A DNA stretch of 64,000 nucleotides. It comes from Escherichia phage BYEP02. Below, one piece after another: positions 2,905-62,377 of this stretch (the first letter of the stretch is position 1; the number at the start of each line of letters is the position of its first letter). Location of the stretch: the sequence record OR757454.1. The stretch is one strand, 5' to 3'. The position numbers and the translations under genes are program-made. The notes beneath the pieces were generated by a model. That model saw nothing but the letters and a program-made list of their open reading frames with translations. It had not been told where the DNA came from and did not search any database.

Positions 2905-3160
2905 ACCGGGTCGCTACCGGTAAGTCGTCGGACTGATGTTCCCTGAGTAAGGAATTGCGTTAATAATCTTTGCGTTTATTGATGCCCTCTTACATCACAG
3001 CAGAAACGGCGCACCGAATTATCGATTCGAGGAAATATCTTTGCCGTAAGCCGAGTAGCGTTTTTGACGGAACGTTCGGATATGGTCGAGATATGGCCTT
3101 TTAAAAATATTGAGTAGCGTCAACTGCTTAATAACCGGGTTCGAATCCCGGCGTTTCGTA
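2905..3160 (+). ncRNA. possible small stable RNA(s) distal to tRNA cluster
   Basis: Non-coding GC-rich stretch with tRNA T-arm-like element (ccgggttcgaatcccgg); position matches where T4 has small stable RNAs. Confidence 0.3.
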
Positions 3161-3210
3161 CAAACACTTGCCTTAGCAGGTGGAACCCCGACAAGGTTGC
3201 CGCAAGGCTT

Positions 3211-3239
3211 AGCCCCGACCGAAAGGTTGGGGCTTTTTG
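3211..3239 (+). terminator. intrinsic terminator, 10-bp stem, GAAA loop, T-tract
   Basis: agccccgacc-gaaa-ggttggggct followed by ttttt. Confidence 0.7.
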
Positions 3240-3291
3240 GTATAACACTTGCCTTAGCAGGTGGAACCCCGACAAGGTTGCCGCAAGGCTT

Positions 3292-3320
3292 AGCCCCAGC
3301 CGAAAGGTTGGGGCTTTTTA
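3292..3320 (+). terminator. intrinsic terminator (second repeat unit)
   Basis: agccccagcc-gaaa-ggttggggct followed by tttt. Confidence 0.7.
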
Positions 3321-3321
3321 G

Positions 3322-3329
3322 TATAAATA
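3322..3329 (+). promoter_or_regulatory. T4-type late promoter TATAAATA
   Basis: Exact TATAAATA ~37 nt upstream of ATG 3366. Confidence 0.55.
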
Positions 3330-3365
3330 AGTATATTAAATCTACAAATTAAAACAGGAAATAAG

Positions 3366-3839
3366 ATGAAATCATATGCTCAATTTTTAAATGAAGCGGT
3401 GTTAAATGAAGCATCTAGCACTGAAATTCAAGCTGTTGCAAAAGCTGCCATTGCCGCGGGTAAATATTCCTATAAAGATGCTTCCGATGAATCACGATTC
3501 CAATTTGCTCGTGATATGAAAGCCGAAGGATTTACAGGGAATGCAGTTAGTATGGCTTGGAAAAGTTTAGTTGCTACTGGAGCTGCTTTTGCAAAGGCTT
3601 CAGGTAAACCTGCTCCTAAGGCTGACCCTAAAGCAGCACAAGAAAAAAATATTGCTAAAGGAATTATCTCTAGGTATGAAGCAATTCTTAAAGAACTTTT
3701 GATAATTAAGACCGAAGGCCAGAAACTTGCGCGTGCTTATAGTTTCAAAGATAATCCACATGCTCATGACCTAGAGTATGTTGAAGACCTCCAAAAAATC
3801 ATCAAAGACCGCATTTGGTCTGCTAAACAAATCAAATAA
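3366..3839 (+). CDS. internal head protein (IP-like) with N-terminal capsid targeting sequence
   Basis: N-terminus MKSYAQFLNEAVLNEASSTE resembles T4 IP targeting sequences; flanked by repeated terminators. Confidence 0.65.
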   Translation: MKSYAQFLNEAVLNEASSTEIQAVAKAAIAAGKYSYKDASDESRFQFARDMKAEGFTGNAVSMAWKSLVATGAAFAKASGKPAPKADPKAAQEKNIAKGIISRYEAILKELLIIKTEGQKLARAYSFKDNPHAHDLEYVEDLQKIIKDRIWSAKQIK

Positions 3840-3846
3840 CATTCTT

Positions 3847-3875
3847 AGCCCCGACCAAAAGGTTGGGGCTTTTTG
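3847..3875 (+). terminator. intrinsic terminator, third copy of the agcccc...ggggct hairpin
   Basis: agccccgacc-aaaa-ggttggggct followed by tttt. Confidence 0.7.
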
Positions 3876-4007
3876 GTATCTAGGCCTTTCCGGGCCTCTC
3901 TAGGCATCATTTAGTTTATACCCTTTATAATATATTATCCTACCTTTTAATTGCCCCTCCTGACCCTAGAATTCCCTAAAACTTTTTAAAAATTTTTTCA
4001 CAAAACT

Positions 4008-4037
4008 GTTTACATCCCTGTTCTTCCATGGTACTAT
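4008..4037 (+). promoter_or_regulatory. T4 early-type promoter (GTTTAC, 18 nt, TACTAT)
   Basis: Upstream A/T tract, -35 gtttac, -10 tactat; same architecture recurs across the window. Confidence 0.6.
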
Positions 4038-4080
4038 ACAACTATCAACTACTGATACAGAAAATAACTTGGAGAATGAA

Positions 4081-4421
4081 ATGGATAATTACGGCGAACT
4101 GTTCAACTTCTTTATGAAATGCGTTTCAGAAGATTTCGGTCGTACAGTGAATGATATTAAAGTCATCGGTCCTGACCATCCAACTTCTTTATGAAATGTG
4201 TTTCAGAAGATTTTGGTCGTACAGTGAATGATATTAAAGTTATCGGTCCTGATCATCCGATGTTTGAAACTTACGCAGTAATGGGTAATGAAGATGGTCA
4301 GTGGTATACTGTAAAGGTTGTGATTAACATGTTCACTGCTGAAGGTTATGTTAAACTGTCTTCTAAAGTTTACCATGATAACGATGAAATCGCAGAAGAA
4401 TATTTCAATAATATGAAATAA
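4081..4421 (+). CDS. hypothetical small protein, frameshifted by a 77-bp duplication
   Basis: ATG 4081; copy 1 gives premature stop; intact sub-ORF 4191-4421. Confidence 0.5.
4104..4257. repeat. 77-bp tandem duplication (4104-4180 / 4181-4257), 4 C/T mismatches
   Basis: Read directly; offset 77. Confidence 0.9.
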
Positions 4422-4451
4422 GTTTACACAGGCTCATGATTGAGATATTAT
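4422..4451 (+). promoter_or_regulatory. T4 early-type promoter (GTTTAC, 18 nt, TATTAT)
   Basis: Motif spacing as at other early promoters. Confidence 0.55.
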
Positions 4452-4477
4452 GAGCCTATAACTTTGAGGAGAACATT

Positions 4478-4813
4478 ATGAAACGTAACTTTAGTAAAGC
4501 TTTTTGTAATAGAAATTATTATCCTGAAGAGCTTTTTGAATCTAAGGACTTTAAAGAGTTTAACGAACGTTCTCAAAACATGCCTGTACAATGGGTGTTA
4601 GATTATGCCAAACGTATCTTTGAAGGTGTACGTTGGTTCAGTCCTGATGATGAAGCCCCATATTTTCAAAGGGCATGGTCTATAGTCAATCAAGCTTATA
4701 TTGATGCTTTAGAAAATATTAATATTATGGATGATGATGATGCTTTGTTAATCATCGATGAGTCTATTAATAGTAGTATCGATAAATTTATTGATGAATT
4801 GGACGAAGAATAA
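4478..4813 (+). CDS. hypothetical acidic protein (111 aa)
   Basis: ORF with RBS; acidic C-terminus. Confidence 0.5.
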   Translation: MKRNFSKAFCNRNYYPEELFESKDFKEFNERSQNMPVQWVLDYAKRIFEGVRWFSPDDEAPYFQRAWSIVNQAYIDALENINIMDDDDALLIIDESINSSIDKFIDELDEE

Positions 4814-4843
4814 GTTTACAAACTCTTGGGAGTAGAGTATAAT
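4814..4843 (+). promoter_or_regulatory. T4 early-type promoter (GTTTAC, 18 nt, TATAAT)
   Basis: Consensus -35/-10. Confidence 0.55.
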
Positions 4844-4888
4844 ACTCCCACGGATTATAAAAACCCTTAATTAACTAAAGGAAATGCT

Positions 4889-5482
4889 ATGAACATGCTG
4901 AAGAAAATTGTTGAGTTTATTCGCACTAAACTTGGTTCTGCTATGGCTAAAAATTTATCTGTTGAAGAACAGTATACTGCTGCGGCAGCAAAACTACTTG
5001 ATAAGATTAAAGATCTAAAAACTGCTTCTGTTAAATCTATTAATGAAGAAAAACGTATTCGTGAACTTATTGTCGAAAAGAATCGACAGGCCGAATCAAA
5101 AGAGCGTGAAATTCGCAAGCTTCTTTCTGAAGGTCAAGATGTAACAATGCATGCTAAACTCGGCTTGCTATATCGTCGAACAGCTGAACAGTTGACTACT
5201 AAAGCTGATGGTTATGCTGAAATGCGAATTGAAATCGCCAAGAAAGTAGTTGAATTGGATGATGCTCGCCAAGAACTTGCAGTTAAATTGGAATATATCC
5301 GTGAAACTCGTGCAGCAAATGCCCTTGGAATTAGTACTGCTGATGATGTAGTTGAAATTGCAGCGCTAACTAAAGTTGATATTGAAGATACTCTCGCCCG
5401 AGTTGAAACCTTTAATGGTAATATTTCTGGGGTTGAAACTACCTCTGCCGATGTTCAGGAATATATTAATTCTCTGAAATAA
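4889..5482 (+). CDS. coiled-coil protein (197 aa), loosely PspA/IM30-like
   Basis: Heptad-rich, charged helical sequence; assignment by composition only. Confidence 0.5.
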
Positions 5483-5487
5483 TGATA

Positions 5488-5510
5488 AGGGGCTTCGGCC
5501 CCTATTACTT
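5488..5510 (+). terminator. intrinsic terminator, UUCG tetraloop hairpin
   Basis: aggggcttcggcccct. Confidence 0.65.
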
Positions 5511-5523
5511 GGAGTAAGTAGGA

Positions 5524-6132
5524 ATGAAAATGCAAAGTGATTTCAATTCAATGTTTGAAGAGTTCCAAAGACAGGTTGATGTTCCAGATCAATTATTAAA
5601 TGCTCTTAAACGTATGGCAGAAGGACGTAATTATTATTGGGGTTCTTCATATGAAACTGATGAAAGTCTTTCTAGAGGATTTTCTAGAGGTAAAAAGTCT
5701 TTAATACGTCCTGGAATACTTATTAACAGTATTGAATCAATTCATTTATTAACATGCGATTTTGACGTTGAATTTACTGATTTTGTTTCTCCTGAATGGA
5801 CGGTCTGTTATTTAAACGACGATTATGATTATCTTGGCGTTTATAGTTTAAGTGATGCACGGTTTAAACGTAATTTACAAAAGTCAAATTTATTTTATAT
5901 TGATACTACTGTAAAATTTCAGGGCAAGAAATATTTCTTTACTCTTATAGTTGATTCTGAAACGAAGCATGAAAATAAACGTATTCTTAGTAAAAAGAAT
6001 ATCTTGAATATTGTTGATGATCTTTTTGATAAATTCGTAGAAAATCTCAATTTTGAAAGCGATTTATTATTAGAAAAATTTGTTAAGGAATGTAGAGAAT
6101 ATGTCAAAGCCATCAATGTATCTTCCAAGTAA
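5524..6132 (+). CDS. hypothetical protein (202 aa)
   Basis: ORF with upstream GGAG. Confidence 0.5.
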   Translation: MKMQSDFNSMFEEFQRQVDVPDQLLNALKRMAEGRNYYWGSSYETDESLSRGFSRGKKSLIRPGILINSIESIHLLTCDFDVEFTDFVSPEWTVCYLNDDYDYLGVYSLSDARFKRNLQKSNLFYIDTTVKFQGKKYFFTLIVDSETKHENKRILSKKNILNIVDDLFDKFVENLNFESDLLLEKFVKECREYVKAINVSSK

Positions 6133-9865: not shown

Positions 9866-10530
9866 ATGGACAATTCATGCGCCATGGAATGGCCCAAATT
9901 TAGAGAGAATAAAATGAGAACATTTTTAACTGGACCTTATCTATCCCTGATGAATGCTTTTACACACCATTCTGATGCTAGAGTAGAAGAAATTTGTAAA
10001 AACGATTATATCCCACCATTTGAAGACTTACTCAAACAGTATTGCACACTTCGACTAGATGGTGGACGTCAATCCGGTAAATCAACTGCCCGCCATTTGA
10101 AGAATTACTTAAACAGTACTGCACACTTCGACTAGATGGTGGACGTCAATCTGGTAAATCAATTGCTGTGACTAACTTTGCTGCTAATTGGTTGTATGAT
10201 GGCGGAACAGTTATTGTTCTTTCTAATACTTCAGCTTACGCTAAAATTTCTGCAAATAACATTAAAAAGGAATTTTCGCGTTATTCTAATGATGATATAC
10301 GTTTTCGTTTATTTACTGATTCTGTGCGCAGTTTTATTGGTAATAAAGGAAGCAAGTTCAGAGGTTTATCGCTTTCGCGAATTTTGTATATAATCGATGA
10401 GCCTGTTAAATCTCCTGATATGGATAAAATTTACGATATTCATATTGAAACTGTGCACCACTGTTGCAATAGTAAATGCTGCATTGGTGGTATTACTCGT
10501 CCACAGTTTTTCATAATCGGAATGCAATGA
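9866..10530 (+). CDS. P-loop protein (GGRQSGKS), frameshifted by a 77-bp duplication; true start may be ATG 9914
   Basis: Walker-A-like GGRQSGKS duplicated with the repeat; frame restored on removing 77 nt. Confidence 0.45.
10018..10171. repeat. 77-bp tandem duplication (10018-10094 / 10095-10171), 5 mismatches
   Basis: Read directly. Confidence 0.9.
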
Positions 10531-10856
10531 TGACAGACACGCAACTTTTCGAATATCTTTATTTTTCGCCAAAAACTATTAAAAATAAATTGGTGAATCA
10601 TTTTGAAATTTTGGCAAATAACAACGTCTTGAGCGAATTTTATCCTAAGCAATACAAATTACAAAAAGGCGTATTCAAAGGATGCAGAGTTTTGTGCACT
10701 GCTCCTAATGCAAGATTAATGAATAAAATTCCATATTTTACCATGGAATTTATTGATGGGCCTTTTAAAGGACTAATTACCCAAAGTTTAATGGCATATG
10801 ATTCTGAGCCATTTTTAATTAAAGAGCAATCTTGGATAAATTTATTTTCTAATTGA
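10527..10856 (+). CDS. hypothetical protein (109 aa)
   Basis: ATGATG start overlapping upstream stop. Confidence 0.5.
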
Positions 10857-10864
10857 GAGGTTAT

Positions 10865-11227
10865 ATGAAAGCATATCAAATTCTTGAAGGCACGCATAAA
10901 GGTACTATTTATTTTGAAGACGGTATTCAAGCACGAATTATTGTCTCTAAAACCTTTAAAGAGGACTCTTTTGTAGACCCAGAAATTTTCTACGGTTTGC
11001 ATGCCCGTGAAATTGAAATTGAAACACAACCTACAGTTAAAATTGAAGGTGGTCAACACTTGAACGTTAATGTTCTGCGTCGTGAAACTCTGGAAGATGC
11101 AGTTAAGCATCCGGAAAAATATCCGCAGCTGACCATCCGTGTATCCGGTTATGCAGTTCGCTTTAACTCTCTGACTCCGGAACAGCAGCGCGACGTTATC
11201 GCTCGTACCTTTACTGAGAGTTTGTAA
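10865..11227 (+). CDS. autonomous glycyl-radical cofactor (GrcA/YfiD-like)
   Basis: C-terminal half ...[57 protein letters not shown] carries the RVSGYAV glycine-radical motif. Confidence 0.8.
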
Positions 11228-11525
11228 TGGCAAAGATAATTATTGAAGGTTCTGAAGATGTGCTAAATGCTTTCGCCGAATGGTTTAGTAATTCAGGCGA
11301 ACAGCAATTTAATGAAGCGTGGAAGGTTCTAAAGATGTGCTAAATGCTTTCGCCGAATGGTTTAGTAATTCAGGCGAACAGCAATTTAACGAAGCATGGA
11401 ACATGGGTGATATTAATGGAATTTATCCTACTACAGAAATTTCTGTTCAAGGATATGGCATTCATGAACCTATTCGTTTAGTTGAATACGATTTATGTAC
11501 TGGTGAGGAAGTCAAATATGATTGA
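11227..11525 (+). CDS. hypothetical small protein, frameshifted by a 77-bp duplication
   Basis: ATG 11227 overlapping upstream stop; 74 codons after removing 77 nt. Confidence 0.45.
11245..11398. repeat. 77-bp tandem duplication (11245-11321 / 11322-11398), 3 mismatches
   Basis: Read directly. Confidence 0.9.
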
Positions 11526-30121: not shown

Positions 30122-30672
30122 ATGTTATTGACTGGCAAATTATACAAAGAAGAAAAACAGAAATTTTATGATGCACAAAACGGTAAATGCTTAATTTGCC
30201 AACGAGAACTAAATCCTGATGTTCAAGCTAATCACCTTGACCATGACCATGAATTAAATGGACCGAAAGCTGGAAAGGTGCGTGGATTGCTCTGTAATCT
30301 TTGCAATGCTGCGGAAGGTCAAATGAAGCATAAATTTAATCGTTCTGGCTTAAAGGGACAAGGTGTTGATTATCTTGAATGGTTAGAAAATTTACTTACT
30401 TATTTAAAATCCGATTACACCCAAAATAATATTCACCCTAACTTTGTTGGAGATAAATCAAAGGAATTTTCTCGTTTAGGAAAAGAGGAAATGATGGCTG
30501 AGATGCTTCAAAGAGGATTTGAATATAATGAATCTGACACGAATTTTCTCGTTTAGGAAAAGAGGAAATGATGGCCGAGATGCTTCAAAGAGGATTTGAA
30601 TATAATGAATCTGACACAAAAACACAGTTAATAGCTTCATTCAAGAAGCAGCTTAGAAAGAGTTTAAAATGA
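30122..30672 (+). CDS. 49: endonuclease VII (Holliday-junction resolvase), frameshifted by a 77-bp duplication
   Basis: Translation MLLTGKLYKEEKQKFYDAQNGKCLICQREL... matches T4 gp49; 157 aa after removing 77 nt. Confidence 0.9.
30464..30617. repeat. 77-bp tandem duplication (30464-30540 / 30541-30617), 1 mismatch, inside gene 49
   Basis: Read directly. Confidence 0.9.
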
Positions 30673-32563
30673 CAATTGAAAAAGAAATTGAAGGATTGAT
30701 TCATAAAACTAATAAAGACCTTTTGAACGAGAATGCTAATAAAGATTCTCGTGTTTTTCCAACTCAACGGGACCTTATGGCTGGTATTGTGTCTAAACAC
30801 ATTGCCAAAAATATGGTCCCGTCTTTTATTATGAAAGCGCATGAAAGCGGAATTATTCATTTCCATGATATTGATTATTCCCCTGCTCTTCCATTTACTA
30901 ATTGCTGTTTAGTAGATTTAAAAGGAATGCTTGAGAACGGATTTAAGCTTGGTAATGCACAGATTGAAACTCCTAAATCAATTGGCGTTGCTACTGCAAT
31001 TATGGCACAAATTACTGCACAGGTTGCTTCCCATCAATATGGCGGAACGACTTTTGCGAATGTAGATAAAGTACTTTCTCCTTATGTTAAACGCACATAT
31101 GCAAAACATATTGAGGATGCAGAAAAATGGCAAATCGCTGATGCGTTGAATTATGCTCAATCTAAAACAGAAAAAGACGTATACGATGCATTCCAAGCTT
31201 ATGAATATGAAGTAAATACTCTCTTTAGTTCAAACGGGCAAACACCTTTTGTAACAATTACATTTGGTACGGGAACTGACTGGACTGAACGAATGATTCA
31301 GAAAGCAATTCTGAAAAATCGTATTAAAGGTCTTGGTCGTGATGGGATAACTCCTATTTTCCCTAAGCTTGTTATGTTTGTTGAAGAAGGTGTTAATCTT
31401 TACAAAGACGATCCGAACTATGATATTAAGCAGCTTGCTCTAGAGTGTGCAAGCAAAAGGATGTATCCTGATATTATTTCAGCTAAGAACAATAAAGCTA
31501 TCACTGGTTCATCTATTCCTGTTTCTCCAATGGGATGCCGTAGTTTCTTGAGCGTATGGAAAGATTCGACTGGCAATGAAATTCTTGATGGACGTAATAA
31601 TCTTGGTGTTGTAACACTGAATCTTCCTCGCATCGCGTTAGATTCTTATATTGGAACACAGTTCAATGAACAGAAATTTGTTGAATTATTCAATGAACGA
31701 ATGGATTTGTGTTTTGAAGCTTTGATGTGTAGAATTAGTTCCTTAAAAGGAGTTAAAGCTACTGTTGCTCCTATTCTTTACCAAGAAGGTGCATTCGGGG
31801 TTCGTCTTAAACCTGATGACGATATAATTGAGTTATTTAAAAACGGTAGAAGTTCAGTCAAGAAGGTGCATTCGGGGTTCGTCTTAAACCTGATGACGAC
31901 ATAATTGAGTTATTTAAAAACGGTAGAAGTTCAGTGTCCTTAGGATACATTGGTATTCACGAATTGAATATTCTTGTCGGTCGTGATATTGGACAAGAAA
32001 TTTTAACTAAGATGAATGCTCATCTTAAACAGTGGACCGAAAGAACCGGTTTTGCTTTTAGCTTGTATTCTACTCCTGCTGAAAACCTTTGCTATCGCTT
32101 CTGTAAACTTGATACTGAAAAATATGGAAGCGTAAAAGATGTTACTGATAAAGGTTGGTACACTAATAGTTTCCATGTTTCAGTAGAAGAAAATATCACT
32201 CCGTTTGAAAAGATTTCTCGTGAAGCACCATATCATTTCATTGCGACAGGTGGTCACATTTCTTATGTTGAACTTCCTGATATGAAAAATAACCTAAAAG
32301 GTCTTGAGGCTGTATGGGATTATGCTGCACAACATTTAGATTATTTTGGTGTTAACATGCCAGTAGATAAATGTTTTACGTGTGGAAGCACTCATGAAAT
32401 GACTCCTACTGAAAACGGATTTGTTTGTTCTATTTGTGGAGAAACTGATCCTAAAAAGATGAACACAATAAGAAGAACATGCGGCTATCTTGGAAACCCG
32501 AACGAACGCGGATTTAATCTCGGCAAAAATAAAGAAATCATGCATAGGGTTAAACACCAATGA
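30669..32563 (+). CDS. nrdD: anaerobic ribonucleotide reductase NrdD, frameshifted by a 77-bp duplication; no intron
   Basis: 605 aa after removing 77 nt; both halves read as T4 NrdD. Confidence 0.9.
31782..31935. repeat. 77-bp tandem duplication (31782-31858 / 31859-31935), 1 mismatch, inside nrdD
   Basis: Read directly. Confidence 0.9.
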
Positions 32564-33030
32564 ATTATGATAGATTTTATCCTTGCGATTTTATTAATGG
32601 TCCTGGCTGCAGGACCGTTCTTTTCGTTACAGGTTGTTTGCATAAATGTGAAGGGTGTTATAATAAATCAACATGGAATGCTAGAAATGGTATTCCATTC
32701 ACTGGTGAAACACTAGAGCAATTAATTGAATGTTTGAATAATGATTATATAGAAGGATTGACTATAACTGGAGGTGACCCTCTCTATCCTGATAACCGAG
32801 ATGTTATTCATTGCATTGTTCAAACAGTAAAAAATCTTTATCCCAATAAAAGCATTTGGTTGTGGACAGGATATAAGTTTGAAGATATTAAACAACTAGA
32901 AATGCTTAAATATGTTGATGTTATTATTGATGGGAAGTATGAGAAAAATCTTCCGACCAAAAAGCTGTGGCGAGGTTCAGATAATCAGCGACTTTGGTCA
33001 AATACCGATGGGGTGTGGAAACATGATTAA
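32560..33030 (+). CDS. nrdG: anaerobic RNR activating enzyme NrdG (radical SAM)
   Basis: Cys cluster CLHKCEGC; ATGA overlap with nrdD stop; 156 aa. Confidence 0.9.
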   Translation: MNYDRFYPCDFINGPGCRTVLFVTGCLHKCEGCYNKSTWNARNGIPFTGETLEQLIECLNNDYIEGLTITGGDPLYPDNRDVIHCIVQTVKNLYPNKSIWLWTGYKFEDIKQLEMLKYVDVIIDGKYEKNLPTKKLWRGSDNQRLWSNTDGVWKHD

Positions 33031-61837: not shown

Positions 61838-62377
61838 AGTAGCAAAATTATATTCAATAGAATTTATGTCTAAAGAAGGTAAATCAGTAAATACACTTGA
61901 TAAAAAGTGCTCATTAATTATTCCTATTATTCAATAGAATTTATGTCCAAAGAAGGTAAATCAGTAAATACACTTGATAAAAATTGCTCGTTAATTATTC
62001 CTTTAGCAGAAAATCCGGATATTTTAATTAAAGATATAAAAGAAAGAAAATATCCAGAAAATGTTATTCTAATTATAAAGCATACTGAAGATATTTTGCA
62101 GAATACTGATTCACCATTTTCTTCTTCTGAAGCTTTAACTATTAAAGGCTATAAAAGAGCTCATGAATATGGTCTTTTTGACCTGTTTGAAGACGATAAA
62201 GTTAAATTAGCGAGTCAACCTTTTAAAAGTAAAACATTCATTATTGAAGATATTAAAGATATAAATGCATTTGTTAGGATGGTCTGGGCTCATTTTGATG
62301 TTGGACTACGCTGGAGAATGTCCGAAGAAGAAAGAAAGATTGCTGAAGCTAATCGTCATTTTGGTTTTTATCGCTAG
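61830..62377 (+). CDS. hypothetical protein, frameshifted by a 77-bp duplication
   Basis: 156 aa after removing 77 nt. Confidence 0.5.
61849..62002. repeat. 77-bp tandem duplication (about 61849-61925 / 61926-62002), 3-4 mismatches
   Basis: Read directly. Confidence 0.85.

Follow-up and report, generated by a model that had tools for sequence, protein, structure and literature searches.

The gene vs.6 lies on the plus strand of the window, the 64,000-nucleotide stretch of Escherichia phage BYEP02 (OR757454.1) that we analysed, and its reading frame is intact from the ATG at 10865 to the TAA codon at 11225-11227. The window is close to Tequatrovirus slur03 (98.9% identity over the first 25 kb), and we assign it by sequence to Tequatrovirus. 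The gene string vs.8-vs.7-vs.6-vs.5-vs.4-vs.3-regB is common to the window, T4 and RB32, and the order vs.8-vs.7-vs.6-vs.5...regB is also found in JS09, phiE142 and Klebsiella phage 15882-6-2. The neighbouring vs.7 matches PHROG 2049. The features in and around vs.6 are collected in Table 1. The overlap between the vs.6 stop and the vs.5 start suggests that the two genes may be translationally coupled within this early-region gene string. Scanning for promoters and terminators yielded no more sites than were found in shuffled sequence.

Table 1. Features of the vs.6 locus and related elements, in positions of the window.
Feature	Position	Strand	Description
Tandem duplications (examples)	629-782, 10012-10166, 11245-11401, 31782-31935, 61851-62002		apparent assembly artefacts
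vs.8	9866-10530		upstream of vs.6; split by the duplication 10012-10166
vs.7 stop codon TGA	10854-10856	+	overlapped by the GAGAGG of vs.6
Shine-Dalgarno-like GAGAGG	10855-10860	+	4 nt before the ATG; read from the sequence
vs.6 coding sequence	10865-11227	+	open reading frame; 120 aa; predicted autonomous glycyl-radical cofactor, ortholog of T4 Vs.6/Y06I
Phage-type 5' half of vs.6	10865-11042	+	residues 1-59 and first base of codon 60
Putatively host-derived patch	11043-11217	+	175 nt, equivalent to E. coli grcA nt 200-374; GrcA residues 68-125
RVSGYAV glycyl-radical motif	11138-11158	+	residues 92-98
Radical glycine Gly95	11147-11149	+	GGT codon; equivalent to GrcA Gly102 and PflB Gly734
vs.6 3' end	11218-11227	+	10 nt; phage-specific 3' variants and stop codon
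TAATG	11225-11229	+	overlap of vs.6 stop and vs.5 start, where the reading frame ends; likewise in T4, RB32 and JS09
vs.5	11227-11525		directly downstream of vs.6; split into 38 aa and 68 aa by the duplication 11245-11401
nrdD	30669-32563		appears as a 411-aa and a 209-aa reading frame, each in another frame, owing to the duplication 31782-31935

About 33 tandem duplications, each of two copies, occur every 1-3 kb across all 64 kb of the window; almost all are exactly 77 nt long, two are of 81 nt, and the copies are 90-100% identical. As 77 is a common k-mer size of assemblers, these duplications look like an artefact of joining assembly segments with untrimmed k-mer overlaps (k = 77). Reading frames that cross a duplication are falsely frameshifted, as is the case for vs.8, vs.5 and nrdD; vs.6 is unaffected. 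Removing one copy of the duplication within nrdD gave a single reading frame for a 605-residue NrdD, and slur03 carries an unbroken nrdD of 1818 nt. The original prediction, made from the letters of the window alone, had placed nrdD and nrdG at 30669-33030, and matches to the Pfam families NRDD, Gly_radical, Fer4_12 and Radical_SAM bear this out. Elsewhere in the window, at 1434-2532, ten tRNA genes (Leu, Gly, Pro, Ser, Thr, Met, Tyr, Asn, His and Arg) form a cluster typical of T4-type phages, with two of the artefactual 77-nt duplications inside it.

Vs.6 is identical to the T4 protein (NP_049730) at 118 of 120 residues, the two substitutions being T54P and R73H in T4. The T4 gene is likewise 363 nt long, has matching neighbours and carries the E. 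coli-type 3' patch as well. The window gene is the ortholog of T4 vs.6/Y06I, and so more than the mere homologue that the original prediction had mentioned. Its remark that this is known biology holds: the function is already described, and the gene as such is no new finding. More than 1,500 phage records contain it.

The prediction of a stand-alone GrcA/YfiD-like glycyl-radical domain was confirmed by a match of residues 60-101 to Pfam Gly_radical (PF01228; 67.2 bits, E-value of 2.2e-18, cut-off 22.2), in a protein encoded as a gene of its own, with a separate gene on either side and no catalytic barrel. At residues 61-120 every position agrees with E. coli GrcA residues 68-127 (100% identity), which is the C-terminal likeness that had been read from the sequence at 10865-11227. 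Over the whole protein, BLASTP aligned 100 aa with GrcA at 74% (E-value of 9e-53), a likeness far above chance. The solved structure of YfiD (PDB 6owr) was among the closest (E-value of 4.6e-42). The RVSGYAV motif and the radical glycine at its centre were found where they had been predicted, and both were invariant in a 12-sequence alignment that included GrcA and PflB; the original prediction had hinged on the conservation of this glycine. Of the features expected of the GrcA/YfiD autonomous glycyl radical cofactor (NCBIfam TIGR04365, InterPro IPR011140), Vs.6 has the small size (about 120-130 aa) and the C-terminal RVSGYAV motif with its radical glycine. It has no cysteines.

The best NCBIfam match was GrcA (TIGR04365), with 154.6 bits over residues 20-120 against an equivalog cut-off of 170 bits, a shortfall that arises because the N-terminal half is divergent. 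The 121-position PHROG 1209 profile of the Vs.6/Y06I family was matched with 211.6 bits over residues 1-120, the phage-type N-terminus included. By the curated cut-off, Vs.6 is not a strict equivalog of bacterial GrcA and fits the phage Vs.6 subfamily better. The product of T4 vs.6 is labelled GrcA in RefSeq.

Only two spare-part proteins, Y06I and YfiD, have been validated by experiment (PMC8683613; PMC13450708). According to these two sources, the activating enzyme of pyruvate formate-lyase (PFL) places a glycyl radical on them, and they bring back the activity of PFL that oxygen has cut at Gly734. For T4 Y06I, this radical and the rescue of oxygen-cleaved PFL in vitro were reported by Wagner et al. 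2001 (per PMC8683613). Residues 58-120 of Vs.6 matched PflB residues 697-759 (PFL structure 1h16) at about 79% (50/63; phmmer E-value of 4.8e-26), and BLASTP aligned 106 aa of the two proteins at 57% (E-value of 3e-32). Both share the same RVSGYAV loop. The C-terminal glycyl-radical domain of PflB (693-759) is the piece that Vs.6 would replace; in PflB it lies covalently within a 760-aa barrel enzyme, whereas Vs.6 is separate. Host PFL as the client of Vs.6 is supported by these matches, together with the radical and rescue data from the 98%-identical T4 Y06I. With E. coli GrcA/YfiD, Vs.6 shares a stand-alone size of about 14 kDa, a C-terminus of 60 identical residues, the fold and the PFL client. 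The two differ in expression, Vs.6 from the phage early-region gene string and GrcA from the host grcA promoter, and in their N-terminal halves, which are weakly similar (about 13 of 39 aligned residues), the AT-rich phage half being seven residues shorter.

We consider it highly probable that Vs.6 (Y06I) is a 14-kDa stand-alone PFL glycyl-radical domain that acts as a spare part, encoded by a mosaic gene with a patch of host grcA. The host radical-SAM PFL-activating enzyme, PflA, would install the radical on Gly95, and radicalised Vs.6 would dock on a PFL that lacks its oxygen-cut radical loop around Gly734 and bring activity back; for both steps the in vitro basis is the 98%-identical T4 protein. 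During infection by a T4-type phage, host genes are silenced and host DNA is broken down, so that neither new GrcA nor new PFL would be made, and the phage may supply its own spare part because the infected cell cannot make either. Such a part would keep the fermentative output of acetyl-CoA, ATP and formate going during infection, probably to the phage's advantage in micro-oxic, gut-like conditions. This benefit in vivo is one that we infer, because we found no infection phenotype of a vs.6 mutant in the literature searched.

The N-terminal half of Vs.6 is where it departs from the host protein. Proteins of T4, JS09 and phages of Klebsiella and Citrobacter align with Vs.6 at the phage-type N-terminus, which unrelated phage families (T4-like, T5-like and jumbo) have in common. 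Between phages, dN/dS was 0.03-0.20 in the 5' half and 0.0-0.2 when both halves are considered, showing that both are under purifying selection. The phage half appears to be a distinct, conserved variant. It corresponds to YfiD's own N-terminal half, which is disordered (residues 1-60, followed by a structured domain at 61-127) and is needed for binding of cleaved PFL and for efficient radical installation (PMC8683613). Because that half governs both steps in YfiD and the phage half is divergent, phage Vs.6 may bind cleaved PFL or be regulated differently from YfiD. Reviews still call this half of YfiD enigmatic, and its phage variants could serve as natural experiments on it.

A conserved, phage-specific N-terminus of this kind might also belong to a regulator or decoy, which would titrate the PFL-activase or load the radical onto intact, inactive PFL and so retune host fermentation. 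That the YfiD N-terminus governs binding and activation (PMC8683613) would agree with such a role. However, Vs.6 is identical to host GrcA at the radical glycine and over the entire docking domain, which catalysis needs and a decoy needs less, and Y06I restores the activity of cleaved PFL in vitro, as stated in PMC8683613. We therefore regard a regulator or decoy as improbable.

Still less probable, in our assessment, is that Vs.6 is a spare domain for the phage's own NrdD, activated by phage NrdG and sustaining dNTP synthesis after oxygen damage. The original prediction had named this anaerobic ribonucleotide reductase beside host PFL as a possible client, and only the PFL part is supported. 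The phage does encode both NrdD and NrdG, NrdD too is cut by oxygen at its radical glycine, and a role in nucleotide metabolism was guessed by Nolan et al. 2006 (PMC1524935). The position of a homolog between nrdD and nrdG in jumbo phage K64-1 likewise hints at a link to anaerobic ribonucleotide reductase. Yet the alignment with the C-terminus of NrdD, which had been proposed as a check, gave no significant similarity between Vs.6 and the C-terminal NrdD reading frame of the window (BLASTP E-value of 2.9), and NrdD was rejected as the main client on this ground. NrdD has the motif RRTCGYLG after a CxxC...CxxC cluster, whereas Vs.6 has RVSGYAV and lacks cysteine, and the Vs.6 domain is instead the one shared with host GrcA and PflB. 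Furthermore, vs.6 lies about 20 kb from nrdD in T4-type genomes and among tRNA genes in T5-like phages, and reviews record spare parts for formate-lyases only (PMC13450708). The repeated suggestion that vs.6 works for the phage anaerobic ribonucleotide reductase is thus disfavoured by the sequence evidence.

At the nucleotide level, vs.6 falls into two parts. The 5' half has a GC content of 0.34, a third-position GC of 0.22 and about 49% identity to E. coli grcA, while the patch is identical to E. coli grcA at 173 of 175 nt, with GC and third-position GC rising to 0.48 and 0.42. A maximum chi-square breakpoint was located at aligned nt 151 (chi-square 103.5, reached in 0/2000 permutations), with identity to E. 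coli grcA of 49% to its left and 97.3% to its right. The two mismatches, at 11060 and 11071, are synonymous changes private to the window; the T4 patch has one change, which is non-synonymous, and T4 vs.6 is 98.3% identical to E. coli grcA across its final 180 coding nt. The longest stretches without any mismatch to E. coli grcA measured 134-173 nt in T4, RB32, the window and related contigs. Each difference from E. coli in the patch is private to one phage, and the phage consensus is the E. coli allele. All 5,426 of 5,426 complete E. coli genomes matched the patch at 95-99%, and the next-best grcA from outside Escherichia was that of Citrobacter amalonaticus, at about 90%. The patch encodes most of the structured glycyl-radical domain, and its 5' junction (GrcA codons 67/68) lies near the boundary between the disordered and structured parts of YfiD (1-60 and 61-127; PMC8683613). 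The gene vs.6 joins a phage-specific N-terminal half to a structured, radical-bearing half whose DNA copies host grcA almost exactly.

Other sources of this likeness were considered and rejected. A pflB donor does not fit, as E. coli grcA and pflB share 78% identity in this region and the patch resembles grcA at 97-99% and pflB at about 78%; its DNA is of grcA and not of pflB origin. Convergent codon usage was discarded because phages share synonymous variants specific to a host, each group with its own, and the grcA genes of E. coli and K. pneumoniae differ by 12% here. It is hardly credible that the host-like 3' half was picked up neutrally or by accident, or stems from a chimeric assembly, and has no function for the phage: the faulty assembly of the window and the ability of host fragments to recombine into T4-type genomes at any homology would speak for it, but T4's reference genome and over 600 independent phage genomes show the same mosaic, vs.6 lies between the duplications 10012-10166 and 11245-11401 and on neither, its reading frame is intact with in-frame junctions and dN/dS far under 1 in both halves, and in a megablast search against the 5,426 E. 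coli genomes 39 kb of the window elsewhere had no match at all, the patch being the best match in the first 25 kb.

The host-like tract is a replacement within an older phage gene. CC31-like contigs and T5-like, Aeromonas and jumbo phages have 3' halves that are AT-rich and 65-79% identical to E. coli. Because these lineages keep such 3' halves, the full-length gene is old in phages and the tract arose by replacement and not by fusion. Relative to the window, identity in Mosigvirus JS09 was 0.69 in vs.7, 0.90 in the 5' half of vs.6, 0.98 in the patch, 0.67 in vs.4 and 0.73 in regB. Along the syntenic locus, JS09 and Carettavirus phiE142 taken together shared 67-80% identity with the window in vs.7, vs.4, regB and vs.1 and 90% in the 5' half of vs.6, and their patch was 98-99% identical both to the window and to E. 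coli. E. coli phages of all three genera (Tequatrovirus, Mosigvirus and Carettavirus) thus carry an E. coli patch at 98-99%. Since the patch is so much more similar than the flanking genes (98-99% versus 67-80%), it is younger than these phage genera, or was renewed since.

We queried the phage records with the grcA genes of two hosts. E. coli grcA matched 638 phage records at 95% identity or above (best 99.5%), and among the matches listed only about nt 200-384 of the gene were covered. The grcA gene of K. pneumoniae, taken from a chromosome mislabelled as a plasmid, matched 106 phage records at 95-99%, over nt 202-369/374 only, and the records among the matches listed were Klebsiella phages, such as Jiaodavirus. 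Each phage group was 86-88% identical to the grcA of the other host, the same as the 88% between E. coli and K. pneumoniae grcA themselves. Exact or nearly exact sharing was also seen on the Klebsiella side, with a 133-nt exact run between K. pneumoniae grcA and Klebsiella phage 15882-6-2 and 157/158 nt shared with contig L117. In the Klebsiella Jiaodavirus phages, the patch is 95-98% identical to K. pneumoniae; its 5' junction is that of the E. coli phages and its 3' junction is different. Because the 3' junctions differ, the E. coli-type and Klebsiella-type patches are best read as separate events. The encoded E. coli and Klebsiella domains differ at two residues only.

Not every host had a counterpart. 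There was no Salmonella-type patch in the phage collection (best match 83.8%), and Salmonella grcA was about 83-84% identical to the E. coli-type patches in that collection. For the Citrobacter/Enterobacter phages Maroon and EC-F1 no near-identical grcA donor was found (best 84%), and among the 80 grcA loci of the genome collection no Klebsiella-type donor was found, the best reaching 87.8% to KP179.

Overall, it seems likely that the radical-bearing half of vs.6 has been kept in step with host grcA by repeated homologous gene conversion. Host-version patches would have arisen more than once, by conversion with fragments of host DNA that form in the infected cell. These fragments could convert the domain tract alone because only the conserved-domain region would be similar enough for recombination between phage and host. 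A converted tract would in turn offer extra homology and so make re-conversion easier. The match between patch and host may be selected, through fit to the host PFL and activase, or merely tolerated. The domain that has to fit host PFL and activase consists of the host's own bases, apparently copied anew in E. coli phages and separately in Klebsiella phages, which offers a model, open to test, of how a gene of a lytic phage and a host gene evolve in concert. We found no report of a DNA mosaic or of conversion in vs.6 in the literature searched, which lacked the older Wagner 2001 and Miller 2003. If undescribed, vs.6 could be a clean, datable case of ongoing DNA flow from host to virulent phage in T4-type phages, which degrade host DNA. 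The patch could also mark the recent host genus of a phage and its host history.

The nearest parallel may be the photosystem genes psbA and psbD of cyanophages, in which Zeidner in 2005 and Sullivan in 2006 reportedly described intragenic recombination between host and phage. That system also combines a virulent phage with a host-type metabolic gene that exchanges segments with the host copy and becomes mosaic. It differs in gene, host and phage group; in vs.6 a single patch with sharp boundaries, about 175 nt long and 98-99% identical, follows the genus of the host, be it E. coli or Klebsiella.

Homologs in more distant phages sit in other surroundings. T5-like phages (Demerecviridae), for example VEc33 and about 30 IMG/VR contigs, encode a 122-aa Vs.6 homolog with a phage-type N-terminus (MKAYQNLKSG...) in a tRNA-rich region, and its annotations vary between acetyltransferase, pyruvate formate-lyase and ribonucleotide reductase subunit. 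In the jumbo Klebsiella phage K64-1 (346 kb), a Vs.6/GrcA-like gene lies between nrdD and a gene for a DUF4326 protein, followed by nrdG, in what appears to be an anaerobic gene cluster (3038-6016). The 3' half of this K64-1 gene is AT-rich, with a third-position GC of 0.08, and is not of the host type. In the Klebsiella-phage-like IMG/VR contig L117 (167 kb), vs.6 (401-759) carries a 1-nt frameshift in its 5' half, which could be a sequencing error or mark a pseudogene.

A few phages isolated on other hosts were also compared with the two grcA types. T4-like phages from Yersinia (PYPS2T) and Citrobacter (PhiZZ23) were 97% identical to E. coli grcA, and the Serratia phage PhiZZ30 and the Salmonella phage pSe_SNUABM_01 were 87-88% identical to K. 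pneumoniae grcA, as E. coli phages are. All of these Yersinia, Citrobacter, Serratia and Salmonella isolates appear to carry the E. coli-type patch, which suggests a recent history in E. coli.
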